Of a DNA stretch of 64,000 bases, positions 1,433-42,179 are shown piece by piece. The notes below the pieces were generated by a model, which was not told the origin of the DNA, searched no databases, and was given only the letters and a program-made list of their open reading frames with translations. The stretch is taken from contig CAZZLT010000046.1 in assembly GCA_964655125.1 (NCBI GenBank), positions 82,159 through 146,158 on the forward strand, in the 5' to 3' direction. The position numbers were made by a program, and so were the translations under genes. Origin of the DNA: an uncultured Desulfurococcaceae archaeon (GTDB lineage Archaea > Thermoproteota > Thermoprotei_A > Sulfolobales > NBVN01). The number at the start of each line of letters is the position of its first letter. Positions within the stretch are counted from its first letter, which is position 1.

Positions 1433-4400
1433 CTAAGGCCAATACTCTGAAAGTTCTCTTATATCTATTAATGAGTTATTATCCTTGAGTAACCAAATAG
1501 CTTTAGAGAGTTCGTATGCTAGATTAGCATTCAGTATTAACGGTATATTTAAATCTACTGTTAACCTCCTAATGCTGTAGTCCTTCTCAGGGGTGTAGCC
1601 TGTCGTAATTACTAGACCTACATCACCACGTCTTAGACGTTCTAAAGATTCATCATATGATATAGTATTAGAATTATTTATTGACATACCCTCAATAGTT
1701 ACTACATCATACCCAATCTTCTTGAAAATGAATGATACCTCACTCAGTAATGGTTTATCTTCAGGGACAGCTGTGTAGATCATTATTAACTCCTCATTCT
1801 TAGGTAATCTATTAGGTGTTACTGATAACCAACTCTTAAGTAATGCGTCCTCGAATGACTTACCTAGTGATGCTACCTCACCAGTACTCCGCATTTCAGG
1901 ACCTAAGAACGGGTATGCACCCCTAACTTGAGCCCATGAGAATTGAGGTGATTTAACAGCCCATGACTTAGCAGGTAATTCAAGGTATTCACCAGACTTA
2001 CCAATCCTTAAACCATCATCAAGAATTGCTTGAGCAGTTAACTCCATAAGGTTAATACCTCTTGACTTACTTGAGAAAGGCATAGACCTACTAGCCCTTA
2101 AGTTAAGTTCTAAGATATAGACTGTATCGTCCTTAACCACAAACTGTATGTTGAATGGACCCTTAATTTCTAACTCTAGAGCAAGTCTTAAGGCAGCATC
2201 ATGAATTTCCTTAATCACATCATTACTTAACCTCCTAACAGGTGTTACCATAGTTGCATCACCACTATGAACTCCTGCAGGTTCTATATGTTCTATAGTA
2301 ACACCTACAACCTTCCTACCATCAGATACTGCATCTACTTCAACTTCTAACGCATTATCTATAAATCTAGAGATCACTACTGGGTACTCCCTAGAAATCT
2401 TAGTAGCTACCTTAAGGAAGTCTACTAACTCATTAACATTATAAGCTATCTTCATAGCAATACCGCCTAATACGTAACTCGGCCTAACTATTACTGGGAA
2501 CCCTATCTCATAGATATTCTTAAGGACTTCCTCAAGACTTGTAACTTCAATCCATGGTGGTTGTTTAAGACCTAAGTAGTCCAGGAGTTTAGAGAATTTA
2601 GCCCTATTCTCAGCCCTATCCACACTAAGACCGCTAGTACCGAGTAACTTAACACCGACGTCCTCAAGCTTCTTAGCTAAGTTATTCGATATCTGACCCC
2701 CTACAAATGCTACTACACCTACAGGTTTCTCTAAATCCACTATATCTCTAACAGTTTCTAAGGTAATCTCATCAAAATATAACTTCTCATTAACATCCCA
2801 ATCAGTTGAAACAGTCTCTGGATTATAGTTAAGTACTATGACCTCATAACCTCTCCTACCTACAGCCTTACTTAAATTAACTGTAGCCCAGTCAAACTCT
2901 ACTGAAACACCAATCCTGAACACACCAGCACCTAACACTAATACCTTCTCCTTAGACTTCCTACTGAAGTCTAAATCATCTATAGAACCACCATAGGTTA
3001 GGTAGAGGTAGTTAGTCCTTGCAGGCCATTCAGCAGCTAAAGTATCTATTTGCTTAACGTAAGGTCTAACACCCTCAGAAATCCTCAACCTCCTTAAGTA
3101 CTCAACATCCATACCTAACAACTTAGATAGTTGCTCATCACTAAATCCGTATTCCTTAGCCTTAGCTATAGTCTTAACTAGTAAGTCGTAATTTAATTTA
3201 ATTTCCTCCTTCCTACTACGTAACTCTTCAGTAAAATCAACTATATCCTTAACGACTTGGATAAAGTACTTATCTATACCGGTAATCCTGTGGAGTTCAT
3301 CAACACTAACACCGAGTTTTAATGCCTTAGCTGTATGGAGTATCCAGTAAGGCTCTCTCTTCCTAAGCTTCTCAATAACTACTGATAACGGTATATCCTC
3401 ATCATAGTAAGATCCACCAACAACTCCAGGCTCTCCAATATCTAACATCCTAATAGCCTTCTGGAAAGCCTCGTAGAGATTCCTACCTATAGCCATAACC
3501 TCCCCAATACTCTTCATCTCACTACCTAAACTTCTCTCAGCACCTACGAACTTCTCTAAATCCCATCTAGGTACCTTAACAACTACGTAATCAAGACTTG
3601 GCTCAAAGCATGAGCAGGTAATCCCAGTAACTTTATTTATTACCTCATCTAACGTGTAACCTAACGCTAACTTAGTAGCTATATACGCTAGTGGGTAGCC
3701 AGTAGCTTTACTAGCTAACGCACTACTCCTAGACATCCTAGGATTAGTCTCAATGATGTAGAACTCCTCAGAGAATGGATTTAATGCTAGCTGAACATTA
3801 CACTCACCTATCAAACCTATAGCTTCAGCAACCTTCATACTAGCATTTCTTAGTAATTGATACTCTCTATCATTTAGGGTTTGACATGGTGCTATAACTA
3901 CAGACTCACCAGTATGTACACCCATAGGATCAGCATTCTCTAAACATGCTACAGCCACTGAATTACCCCTCCTATCCCTCATAACTTCAAACTCTATCTC
4001 CTTCCAATGATGTAGGTACTTCTCTATGAGGACTAACCTTATATCACTATGAGCTAAAGCTCTTAAAATATTCTCCTTAAGATCCTCCTCATCCCAAGCT
4101 ATGAAGGAACCCCTACCACCTAAGTTAAAACTAACCCTACATATTACTGGGTAACCTACCTGATTAGCTACTTCTAAAGCCTCATTCAAACTCCTAGCAG
4201 CACCACTCATCGGTACAGGTAATGACCAAGCCTTCATAGTCTCCTTAAACAACTCTCTATTCAACGCCTTCTCAATACCATCAACAGGCGTACCGTAAAC
4301 TCTAACCCCGTACTTACGTAAAATACCTTTCCTCTCCAACATTACACCTACTGATAACGCTGACTGACCTCCAAACCCTAATAATATACCGTCAGGTCTC

Positions 4401-4633
4401 TCACGATCTATAACAGCCTCAATAAACTCTACTTTAATAGGTATTAAGTAAACTCTATCAGCTAGCTCATGACTAGTCTGTATAGTTGCTATGTTAGGAT
4501 TAACTAATACTGTCTTAATACCCTCCTCCTTAAGTGCTTTAAGTGCTTGACTACCACTATAATCGAATTCAGCTGCTTCAGCAATCTTAATAGCTCCAGA
4601 ACCTATTACTAATACCTTAGAAGGTAGTTCCAT
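1433..4633 (-). CDS. carB: Carbamoyl-phosphate synthase large subunit
   Basis: 1066 aa with duplicated ATP-grasp halves and a C-terminal MGS-like domain. Overlaps the carA stop by 17 nt. Confidence 0.95.
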
Positions 4634-5813
4634 ACCTCTCCACCAATCTCTTAAATAAGTTGAATATCCATTCAGAATCTAGGGGGCCTGGAGAACCTTC
4701 TGGGTGGAACTGAACTGTAACTACTGGTTTACTAAGGTGTTTTAACCCCTCAACAGTTTTATCATCAGCATTAATAAACCATAATTTAAACCCTGTATTA
4801 CTTAACGATTCACTACTTACTGCATATCCATGATTTTGACTTGTTACGAAGCACTTACCCCTCTCTAAATCTACACATGGTTTATTATGACCTCTATGAC
4901 CGTACTTAAGCTTATAAACATCAGCACCTGCTGCTAGAGCTAGTACTTGATGACCTAAACATATACCTAGTGTTGGTATACCGTACTCTAACACAACCCT
5001 AGCGTACTTTACAGTATGGTGGAGTAACTTAGGATTTCCAGGACCATTACTGTATAGTATCCCTGAAGCATTAAACTCTATATAGTACTTTATAGGGTCC
5101 TCAATACATGGTATCCTAATAACTCTAAATCCATTCTTAATTAACTCCCTAAGTATTCCATACTTAATACCACAATCAACAACTATTATAGTTGGTACGT
5201 TACTACTGAAGTTTAAAGGTTCATGAAATACTATATTCTTAGGCATTACATCACTTACTAAATCTCTATAATCATACCTTAAACTACTGTTTAACTTATT
5301 GATTAATTCATCAACACATACTTCCTCACCCACCTCATAAACAGCTACTAACGCATTCATAACACCCTTCTCCCTAATCCTCTTAACAAGTTCTCTAGTA
5401 TCAACATCTGAAACAGCAGGTATACCTTCATCTCTTAACCACTCATCTAAACTCTTAATACTAGCCCAATGACTAGGTATGTTATGATAAGCTACTACTA
5501 CAGCTTCTACTTGAGGTCTATCAGATTCGAAGTACTTAGGAACCCCAAACTCTAGTATCTCCTTACTCGGAATTCCGTAATTACCCATCATTGGATGGGT
5601 GAAAATCAGTATCTGACCTTTAAATGATGGGTCGGTAATAGCTTCGTGATAACCGACCATACCTGTAGTAAATACTAACTCACCGACTCGTATACCTGGA
5701 GAACCAAAACCACAACCCTCCATAACAGTTCCGTCTTCAAGGATTAAGTATGATTTAAGACCTCTACATAATTTCCTACATCTAAATATTAATTTATTAC
5801 TCATGATTAACAC
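4617..5813 (-). CDS. carA: Carbamoyl-phosphate synthase small (glutaminase) subunit
   Basis: N-terminal LILEDGT motif, GATase GICLGHQ and HRGHN. The true start may be the internal Met (MSNK, 5804). Confidence 0.93.
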
Positions 5814-40879: not shown

Positions 40880-41055
40880 CCTAACACCTACTAGAGATAC
40901 ATTAACAACAGCTATTAAATATTATCAATTATCAATACTAATACTATAAACTATTGAGAACTCATCACAAAGACATCCCATACCCCTCTCTCAAAGACTT
41001 AACATCAGTACTCTCTAAGTGAGGTTATAGTTATTATATCCGATGATATTAAAGC

Positions 41056-41062
41056 TTATAAA
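41056..41062 (+). promoter_or_regulatory. TATA box (TTATAAA, purine-rich AAAG upstream) for the tRNA transcript
   Basis: Lies about 25-40 nt upstream of the leader helix and the tRNA 5' end. The spacing would put the transcription start near 41081-41087. Confidence 0.4.
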
Positions 41063-41128
41063 GTATTAAGTGTAATAAGAGGTTGGGAGGCCAAAGCAGC
41101 GGGGTGGGGTAGCCAGGGAGCCCGCGGG

Positions 41129-41158
41129 AGGTAGGTTGCAGTAGTACCTACCCGCGAA
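41129..41158 (+). other. tRNA intron 1 (30 nt, position 30/31)
   Basis: Central helix CGCG:CGCG (41123-26 / 41153-56), bulges GGA and AAG, 7-bp inner helix 41130-36 / 41146-52, no outer helix. Confidence 0.8.
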
Positions 41159-41165
41159 GCTCATA

Positions 41166-41192
41166 TAATACAGTACTGGCTGTGTTGGAGAG
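41166..41192 (+). other. tRNA intron 2 (27 nt, canonical position 37/38)
   Basis: Anticodon stem as outer helix, CTCA:GGAG central helix (3 pairs plus 1 mismatch), bulges TAT and AGA, 6-bp inner helix 41167-72 / 41181-86. Confidence 0.85.
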
Positions 41193-41214
41193 ACCCCGAG
41201 GTCGGTGGTTCAAA

Positions 41215-41254
41215 ACGAGGTAGCCTGAGTAACTGTTGGGCTACCTCGTGAGAG
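41215..41254 (+). other. tRNA intron 3 (40 nt, T-loop position 59/60)
   Basis: T stem as outer helix, TTCA:TGAG central helix, bulges AAA and AGT, 10-bp inner hairpin 41216-25 / 41239-48. Confidence 0.88.
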
Positions 41255-41333
41255 TCCACCCCCCGCTACCAGAAGCCTCCCACCATCACCTCAGTTATAA
41301 ATTAATTAAGTTAATAATTATGAAGTAATTCAG

Positions 41334-42179
41334 GTGGGTTCATATATGATTAACGAACTTCATTTCGGGACTGCAGGAATACCTAACAGTACTATTAAGC
41401 CGTCAACCTTAAATGGTGTGATTAGAGTTCATGAGTTAGGTCTTAATGCCATGGAAATAGAATTTGTGAGGGGTGTTAGGATGAGTGTAGAGTCAGCGTT
41501 AGAGATTCGTAAAGTATCTGTAGAGTTAGGTGTTATATTGACTGTCCACGCACCATACTATATAAACTTACTCTCCTCGGAGGATTCTAAAGTTAATGCA
41601 TCTATTAAGAGAATCGTAGAATCTGCTAGGGTAGGTTCTAAAGCTGGTGCTTGGTCATTAGTATTCCACCCAGGATATTACGGGAAGTTAAAGTCTGAGG
41701 AATGTATAGAACATGTCAGGAAGATCCTGAAGAAAGTGGTTAAAGAGTTAATTGATGAGGGTATTAAGATGTGGATAAGACCTGAAGTTATGGGCGGTTT
41801 AGCTGAATTCGGATCTGTTGAGGAGGTAGTTGCAGTTACTGAGGGTTTAGACTACACATTACCATGTATAGACTTCGCTCACATATATGCTAGGAGCTTA
41901 GGTAAGGTAAATAATTATGATGCATTCAAAAACATTTTAGAATATATAGAGAGTAGATTAGGTAGTGAAGCATTAAAAAACTCACATATCCATATGTCCG
42001 GTATAGAGTATGGGGAGAGAGGAGAGGTAAAACATACTAATCTTAATGAATCTAAAATAAATTATGTAGATTTAATGAGAGTTCTTAAGGACTTTAAAGT
42101 AGTTGGTGTCCTCATTAGCGAATCACCAAATTTAGAGGATGATGCATTACTGATGATGCAGACATATAGGAGTATCTAG
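41334..42179 (+). CDS. AP-endonuclease family 2 / xylose-isomerase-like TIM-barrel protein (endonuclease IV-like)
   Basis: FGTAGIP start, VHAPYYINL, FHPG pattern; 281 aa. Confidence 0.6.
   Translation: MGSYMINELHFGTAGIPNSTIKPSTLNGVIRVHELGLNAMEIEFVRGVRMSVESALEIRKVSVELGVILTVHAPYYINLLSSEDSKVNASIKRIVESARVGSKAGAWSLVFHPGYYGKLKSEECIEHVRKILKKVVKELIDEGIKMWIRPEVMGGLAEFGSVEEVVAVTEGLDYTLPCIDFAHIYARSLGKVNNYDAFKNILEYIESRLGSEALKNSHIHMSGIEYGERGEVKHTNLNESKINYVDLMRVLKDFKVVGVLISESPNLEDDALLMMQTYRSI

Follow-up and report, generated by a model that had tools for sequence, protein, structure and literature searches.

Within a 64,000-nt stretch of the genome of an uncultured Desulfurococcaceae archaeon (contig CAZZLT010000046.1; the whole stretch is called the window hereafter), the gene for the initiator methionine tRNA (tRNAiMet) is interrupted by three introns and enclosed by a short G:C-rich helix between its leader and its trailer. 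This terminal helix is the subject of the present analysis. GGTTGGGAGGC (41081-41091) pairs with GCCTCCCACC (41275-41284) over 10 bp, eight of them G:C, leaving T41084 bulged; an internal loop of 6 x 7 nt, CAAAGC (41092-97) opposite ACCAGAA (41268-74), separates it from the acceptor stem. A preliminary description of the locus had drawn exactly this arrangement, and it is borne out by the sequence, by an inverted-repeat search that recovered the same arms and by the minimum free energy (MFE) fold; the helix is present in the centroid fold too, and both sides of the loop are unpaired in the two structures. What that description overlooked is the invariant RCCA directly after the helix. GGGAGGC/GCCTCCC is followed in the window by A and CCA, the sequence signature of a tRNA acceptor end, and since an RCCA that does not vary stands behind a 7-bp stem, the terminal element is formally an acceptor end. 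The features are collected in Table 1.

Neither ARAGORN nor Rfam returned a tRNA match on the window, nor did Rfam on 16 related loci, and the gene was read by hand, with intron boundaries set by alignment to the intron-less tRNAiMet of Zestosphaera tikiterensis (locus L009; related loci are given as L numbers). The joined exons amount to 77 nt and match the Z. tikiterensis tRNA everywhere but in the D loop. This spliced product is near-identical to the tRNA-Met(cat) called by ARAGORN in L009 and carries the marks of an archaeal initiator, namely the anticodon CAU, A1:U72 and three G:C pairs, G29-31:C39-41. As both programs are blind to such genes, initiator tRNAs will appear to be missing from these metagenome-assembled genomes (MAGs). 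The RNase P site is presumed to lie at 41097/41098.

Table 1. Features of the tRNAiMet locus, in positions of the window (BRE, B recognition element).
Feature	Position	Strand	Basis
Putative archaeal promoter: BRE-like AAAGC and TATA-like TTATAAA (41056-62)	41051..41062	+	read from sequence, conserved in 27 orthologs
GGT extending the pairing to 10 bp, lineage-specific	41081..41083	+	ACC partner in window, L006 and L015 only
Helix 5′ strand GGGAGGC; predicted transcription start at or within 1-2 nt of 41085	41085..41091	+	paired in 25/25 orthologs
Unpaired leader spacer CAAAGC (consensus CRRAGY), 5′ side of internal loop	41092..41097	+	conserved in orthologs
tRNAiMet(CAT) with encoded CCA	41098..41271	+	hand reading against L009
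Exons	41098-41128 (nt 1-30), 41159-41165 (31-37), 41193-41214 (38-59), 41255-41271 (60-76)	+	alignment to L009
Intron 1, 30 nt, position 30/31	41129..41158	+	alignment to L009
Intron 2, 27 nt, canonical position 37/38	41166..41192	+	alignment to L009
Intron 3, 40 nt, position 59/60 in T loop	41215..41254	+	perfect 11-nt inverted repeat
Trailer spacer GAA; with A73-C-C-A76, 3′ side of internal loop	41272..41274	+	length and sequence variable in orthologs
Helix 3′ strand GCCTCCC	41275..41281	+	ortholog pairing, predicted pair probabilities
ACCA single-stranded tail after helix, a second 'discriminator + CCA'	41282..41285	+	RCCA conserved in 25/25

Relatives were collected by three routes. One followed conserved gene order, with AP_endonuc_2 downstream and psmA upstream; another searched genomes with a 23-mer taken entirely from exon 1 (11 loci, unbiased as to the flanks); the last was a metagenome scan with a 23-mer spanning -3 to +20 (107 loci). 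The last pattern forces AGC at -3 to -1, so that its loci offer no independent evidence for these three bases. All seven inner pairs of the helix form in each of 25 distinct tRNAiMet orthologs from Ignisphaera/Desulfurococcales-like genomes, that is, in 100% of 175 cells. When 24 distinct flank pairs were aligned with MAFFT, pairing in the 7 bp was again 100%, pair 4 being G-C in 16 and A-U in 8 and pair 7 C-G in 22 and U-G in 2; adding L144 and a Zestosphaera sp. gives 17 G-C and 8 A-U for pair 4, and 22 C-G, 2 U-G and 1 A-U for pair 7. Two of the seven pairs thus change on both sides in the alignment of 25 sequences, which are related to one another and whose 3′ block was placed by its motif, and no shuffle reached the covariation score. 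Slid-register controls left 45-69% of cells paired, with zero double changes. Comparison of the flanks in relatives, which the preliminary description had proposed as a check, accordingly returned 7 bp that are both conserved and covarying.

Conservation is confined to a compact module. GGGRGGY...RCCYCCC and the RCCA after it are kept while upstream sequence, introns, 3′ spacer and downstream sequence diverge. Within the group from hot springs and vents the leader GGGRGGY-CRRAGY is shared, and its CRRAGY spacer is conserved in the loci found by the exon-only pattern and by synteny. The trailer in that group, where the 3′ end is on the contig, follows one plan, a variable spacer of 1-10 nt, a heptamer exactly complementary to that of the leader, and RCCA; only Zestosphaera sp. 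L135-137 and the Z. tikiterensis gene without introns depart from it. In 25 of 25 orthologs the CCA does not vary and is preceded by A or G. The 10 bp drawn in the preliminary description can pair in the window, but the helix that would function has 7 bp: only these inner pairs are conserved, and the outer three (GGT/ACC) are paired in 22% of cells among 24 orthologs.

The predicted ends of the transcript agree with these limits. A TATA box had been noted at 41056-41062; TTATAAA is found there, and the box (AAAGCTTATAAR / CTTAAAAA) keeps its spacing in 27 orthologous loci, with 28-32 nt (mode 30) from its first T to the G that opens the leader heptamer, so that 41051-41062 would act as the promoter. 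The base at -1 of that G is always a pyrimidine (27 loci). Archaeal TATA boxes lie at a usual distance from the start, and measured by this spacing transcription probably begins at 41085 ± 2, in which case the transcript would open with the helix. As a start at 41085 would predict, conservation begins there and GGT 41081-83 is unconserved; these three bases probably lie upstream of the start and would not be transcribed, in line with the earlier caveat that part of the 5′ strand might be missing from the RNA. At the other end, most GGGGGGC-type orthologs have a T- or pyrimidine-rich tract within ~10 nt after the RCCA, which is suggestive of an RCCA at or near the transcript 3′ end.

The three introns interrupt the tRNA at positions that also serve as split or permutation sites in known archaeal tRNAs (table in PMC3218864; see also PMC4033280 and PMC4090602). 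Intron 1 holds a hairpin GGTAGG/CCTACC with flanks CGCG/CGCG, read by hand as a relaxed bulge-helix-bulge (BHB) motif. Intron 2 shows a helix AAUACAG/CUGUGUU after a 3-nt bulge in the fold, and a central helix CUCA/GGAG with one A-G mismatch was drawn by hand. Intron 3 can be drawn by hand as a canonical hBHBh′ with the central helix UUCA/UGAG and bulges AA|A and AG|U. These putative BHB motifs were judged by hand, the helices being backed by folding and by the inverted-repeat search. Introns 1 and 3 share a GAGGTAG-type sequence (41128-41134, 41241-41247), and part of intron 3 is complementary to the D arm (41108-41114 with 41239-41245), which may point to a common intron origin or to a risk of misfolding.

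Related genomes carry this gene in many other states. It is intact in Z. tikiterensis (L009/L010), has one intron at 59/60 in L132, two (30/31 and 37/38) with a possible extra 39/40 segment in L120, three in the window, L006 and L015, and three with a possible extra 39/40 segment in L007, L011, L013, L014, L017 and L020; L123 has a T-loop insert of 300 nt. Nine loci have the gene in two pieces 0.9-2 kb apart with a promoter box before the downstream piece (L018, L057, L072, L080, L103, L112, L128, L131, L144), three encode its 5′ and 3′ parts on opposite strands (L021, L046, L107) and one has it in three pieces (L029). The extra segment, 11-20 nt between A38-C39 and C40, is found in L057, L128 and L031 as well as in the six three-intron loci named above and L120, and is absent from the window and L018. 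It sits between conserved GGRGAC-AC and CCCGAGG, and the base 5′ of CCCG varies (A, T, G, C), so that it is not exon. This suggests a short intron at 39/40, by which L007, L011, L013, L014, L017 and L020 would have four interruptions.

The split genes are broken at the same three sites as the window's introns (30/31, 37/38 and 59/60), and the helix is kept although its strands sit on separate pieces, whether on opposite strands or behind a promoter box of their own 0.9-2 kb downstream, L029 included. The inverted arrangement in L021, L046 and L107 can yield a tRNA by trans-splicing only, and their trailers still read GCCCCCC followed by ACCA. In L029 (~2317-4375) the pieces are 1-37, 38-59 and 60-76, with a promoter-like box before piece 2, and the helix strands are on pieces 1 and 3, a tri-split-like layout. 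Complementary sequences at the split sites are distinct from the outer helix, as GGGCGGCCCG/CGGGCCGCCC in L128. Every disrupted gene with a readable 3′ end carries the helix, whose complementary strand in Zestosphaera sp. L135-137 stands in the 5′ half.

Open reading frames (ORFs) often stand between the pieces and match the Pfam family LAGLIDADG_3. They fall into two distinct families, one of 343-354 aa at 37/38 and one of 204-211 aa at 59/60, that is, at the sites of the window's introns 2 and 3. Such ORFs lie at L057 6878-7942 (-), L029 2490-3521 (+) and 3657-4271 (+), and L103 1878-2513 (+), the match of L029 2490-3521 being below the Pfam cut-off.

Could the pairing be accidental, or belong to an inverted repeat of the DNA (the ends of a mobile element, say, or an integration site), with no role in RNA? 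tRNA genes are common integration targets and relatives carry LAGLIDADG ORFs, but those ORFs stand at the intron sites, away from the helix. The repeat persists with its arms 2 kb apart or on opposite strands, it shows compensatory changes, and its U-G variants pair only in the plus-strand RNA, which argues against a repeat at the DNA level. A G:C-rich 7-mer followed within 30-450 nt by its reverse complement and RCCA occurs twice in the 64-kb window where block shuffles lead one to expect 0.05; the two are the true acceptor stem and the terminal helix, which the pattern cannot tell apart. We regard this explanation as hardly credible.

Only slightly more credit is due to a BHB-type processing stem, at which leader and trailer would be cut off by the splicing endonuclease and the tRNA set free or circularised. 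Leader-trailer helices do flank BHB sites in archaeal pre-rRNA (PMC7714728) and in permuted and split tRNAs (PMC4090602). In the window, CAAAGC opposite ACCAGAA cannot form a 4-bp helix and both sides are unpaired in the folds; the 3′ side of the loop ranges from 5 to 14 nt among orthologs, unlike the fixed geometry of a BHB; and a correct 5′ end would need a CCGC-like motif in the trailer, where none is present. Since a central helix of 4 bp cannot form and the spacer is not constant, we reject BHB excision as very improbable, and the earlier failure to fold a canonical BHB at this junction was no oversight.

Folding supports a stable helix. The values that follow are nearest-neighbour predictions extrapolated to high temperature. 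For a transcript spanning 41085-41285 the predicted pair probabilities of the terminal helix are 0.90-0.99 at 85 °C and 0.78-0.93 at 95 °C, exceeding those of the acceptor stem. When the trailer strand is replaced, the acceptor-stem values at 85 °C fall from 0.74-0.95 to 0.55-0.82. In L128, a split ortholog, the halves are predicted to associate at 85 °C with a free energy of -12.8 kcal/mol if the helix is present and of -8.1 kcal/mol if it is absent. The leader/trailer duplex amounts to -14.5 to -27.5 kcal/mol in the correctly parsed genes that have a trailer helix.

Three further ideas on the sequence of the module were dropped. A kink-turn in the internal loop was rejected by reading, there being no tandem G-A arrangement and no conservation of the 3′ side; the resemblance to Shine-Dalgarno and anti-Shine-Dalgarno sequences (GGAGG/CCUCC) was rejected because most orthologs have GGGGGGC/GCCCCCC; and the 16S-like ATCACCTCA (41286-41294), which directly follows the ACCA and recalls the crenarchaeal 16S rRNA at its 3′ end, is probably a coincidence, being conserved in neither L006 nor L007. 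Reading of the precursor gave no partner (GCUUUG) for the leader spacer CAAAGC.

We favour, with moderate confidence, a reading of the helix as a terminal clamp and end-mimic of a disrupted initiator pre-tRNA that is later trimmed off. On this model the primary transcript would start at G41085 and its first 7 nt would pair with the trailer GCCUCCC, closing the whole precursor by a G:C-rich 7-bp helix whose 4-nt ACCA overhang resembles a second acceptor end. The clamp would tie the 5′ exon to the 3′ exon and reinforce the true acceptor stem at ~85 °C while introns interrupt the D/anticodon and T arms, so that splicing endonuclease and ligase could act on a correctly registered substrate. In split orthologs, with two or three transcripts, the same helix would form between molecules and aid assembly. 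The 6 x 7-nt loop would leave the -1/+1 junction and the inner ACCA single-stranded, and RNase P and a 3′ nuclease would remove leader and trailer after splicing. More tentatively, the outer stem with its RCCA might be a precursor-specific second acceptor end that end-processing and repair enzymes read as a tRNA terminus.

A number of observations weigh against the clamp. The covariation events are probably few, two substitutions and one wobble, and the stabilisation of the cis precursor predicted by folding is modest. Intron-bearing tRNAiMet genes of other archaea do without such a helix. The window's own clade has no clear oligo-T terminator after the ACCA. The intron-less Z. tikiterensis gene keeps a GGGGGGU leader and lacks the complementary trailer, which would suit a link between helix and disruption, but with only one intact gene (n = 1) that link is suggestive. 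In Zestosphaera sp. L135-137 the leader complement (GGGGGGA/UCCCCCC) and ACCA end the 5′ half, and the trailer of the 3′ half is without a complement; the helix thus closes one transcript instead of joining the 5′ and 3′ exons, from which it follows that clamping of exons is not the whole story. Nor does a clamp as such account for the invariance of RCCA and of the leader spacer CRRAGY. The preliminary description had offered a clamp and a relic of a once-split gene among its possibilities: orthologs split at the intron sites do keep the helix, and the complement at the end of the 5′ half in Zestosphaera sp. does not fit. What stays constant is a G-rich leader 5′ end paired to a C-rich segment and then RCCA at the 3′ end of some predicted transcript, and not strictly a tie between the 5′ and 3′ exons.

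The Zestosphaera sp. genes themselves (L135-L137, from GCA_038727705.1 and relatives) are split at 37/38, with the tRNA region at ~4329-4661 on the reverse strand, and a leader-like relic, GGGGGGCCGATGG, lies between their halves.

The ACCA that ends their 5′ half belongs to the evidence for a different emphasis, in which the end-mimic or processing signal is primary and clamping secondary: stem and RCCA would make the leader-bearing transcript resemble a finished tRNA end and so define or protect its two termini, with resistance to the exosome and to 5′-3′ exonuclease, CCA repair, an anti-determinant effect on tRNase Z or docking of RNase P on the RCCA as conceivable routes. Enzymes that process tRNA ends usually measure the 12-bp acceptor/T stack, and a 7-bp stem alone falls below that; an end of this kind is also missing from the intact Z. 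tikiterensis gene. On the other side stand the invariant CCA and the discriminator-like purine in 25 of 25 orthologs, a signature as acceptor-like as that of the true acceptor stem, the stem and ACCA that close a 5′ half alone in Zestosphaera sp., the T/pyrimidine-rich tract after the RCCA in most orthologs and a 5′ strand that begins at the predicted start. RCCA-dependent cleavage by RNase P is moreover documented on small model substrates (PMC12710915). We consider this emphasis possible, with a rather low probability, and it is compatible with the clamp.

The G-rich leader of Z. tikiterensis, retained where the trailer complement is missing, also suits a third proposal, in which the leader is kept for promoter function or initiation and the trailer is a decoy that prevents misfolding by keeping it from invasion of the introns or of the tRNA's C-rich 3′ strand (CCACCCCCCGCU). 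The 3′ strand of the tRNA does contain a run of six C, and the inverted-repeat search found several alternative 7-nt complementarities in the region. Z. tikiterensis, however, tolerates an unsequestered GGGGGGU leader, pairing with C6 is already weaker in the window owing to the A at position 4, and the RCCA is left without explanation. Such sequestration strikes us as unlikely, and it is compatible with both the clamp and the end-mimic.

If the more tentative reading of a dedicated second acceptor end is correct, which we hold to be rather improbable, this end would protect the termini of the precursor and enforce splicing and assembly before trimming. The module would then be what allows the one initiator tRNA gene of this lineage to be disrupted repeatedly at ~85 °C, whether by introns or by division into two or three pieces with homing-endonuclease ORFs. 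Whatever its function, one clade holds the initiator tRNA gene intact, with one to three and possibly four introns, split at each site or tri-split. This unusually complete series offers a concrete system for the origin of split tRNA genes from intron-containing ones and for the assembly of fragments at high temperature, and the helix is a simple experimental handle on it through mutation and compensation.

As for the wider distribution, ~58 distinct tRNAiMet genes of other archaea have A/T-rich leaders, 0 or 1 intron (one in many of them) and a leader/trailer duplex averaging -6.8 kcal/mol. Some tRNAiMet genes of sediment-type archaea (L088, L042, L055, L067, L060) have 10-13 bp of leader/trailer complementarity of a different sequence, for example AAAGC with GCTTTT beside the terminator T-run, and a looser leader-trailer pairing may be more widespread. 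No stem with RCCA was found on other genes in the fetched loci of relatives, nor a comparable helix at tRNA-Arg(CCT) in three Ignisphaera loci.

In the window (G+C 36%), 41065-41299 is the sole strong GC island of the 64 kb. The tRNAiMet gene lies within 40880-41345 between an AP_endonuc_2 gene and psmA, the head of a cluster of exosome and proteasome genes (psmA, SBDS, Rrp4, Rrp41). Linkage of tRNAiMet to AP_endonuc_2, DUF1152 or psmA is retained in many relatives and lost in Ignisphaera spp.; inspection of gene order in Ignisphaera spp. and Desulfurococcaceae AG1 showed no tRNAiMet beside the AP-endonuclease gene or psmA. Metagenome contigs from Great Boiling Spring carry DNA and protein identical to the window's, and homologues of the neighbouring genes are labelled as Sulfolobales, Desulfurococcales, Ignisphaera or Zestosphaera MAGs. 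Two related loci, L131 (5057-5201) and L027 (745-845), share a GC-rich RNA-like island with AGATGGGAGCCT..GTTGGGCTCGACAG, to which L131 adds a closing helix and motifs that resemble C/D boxes; Rfam gives no match to the island at the gathering score.

Some of the nearest known systems are eukaryotic. Long leader-trailer helices had been called atypical of ordinary RNase P substrates, which is too strong: according to PMC8457004 (citing Lee 1997 and Gogakos 2017), extended acceptor stems in which -1 is bulged or looped are frequent in the nuclear pre-tRNAs of yeast and human, RNase P tolerating such stems on that condition, and a conserved trailer promotes processing of MALAT1-mascRNA. The locus described here has the same two properties, leader-trailer pairing (7 bp in 25 orthologs) that extends the acceptor stem and a loop at -1/+1 that would keep the RNase P site accessible. 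It differs in the large loop of 6 x (5-14) nt that sets the helix apart from the acceptor stem, in conservation and covariation across a clade, in a start at the predicted transcription start, in the invariant RCCA and in belonging to archaeal genes that are multi-intron or split.

With the split tRNAs of Nanoarchaeum, Caldivirga and Desulfurococcales and with permuted tRNAs it would have in common that G:C-rich complementarity holds separately encoded pieces together for processing; this concerns the split orthologs, the gene of the window being a single transcription unit. In those tRNAs the complementarity is at the split site and forms a BHB cut by the endonuclease, whereas the helix of the window lies outside the acceptor stem, has no BHB and is additional to the split-site helices; no such outer helix is described in the papers on split, permuted and intron-containing tRNAs PMC3218864, PMC4033280 and PMC4090602. 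The processing stems of archaeal pre-rRNA are likewise long-range helices of sequences flanking the mature RNA (PMC7714728), but they contain a BHB cut by EndA, with circular intermediates, and the junction in the window has none. In its sequence signature the element matches a tRNA acceptor end or minihelix, a 7-bp G:C-rich stem followed by a purine and CCA, except that it encloses a complete tRNA instead of the D, anticodon and T arms. Leader-trailer pairing in eukaryotic pre-tRNAs and complementary flanks at archaeal split sites were known already, and the element is a variant of the former; new relative to the literature searched is a conserved, covarying outer helix with an RCCA tail of its own around a disrupted archaeal initiator tRNA.

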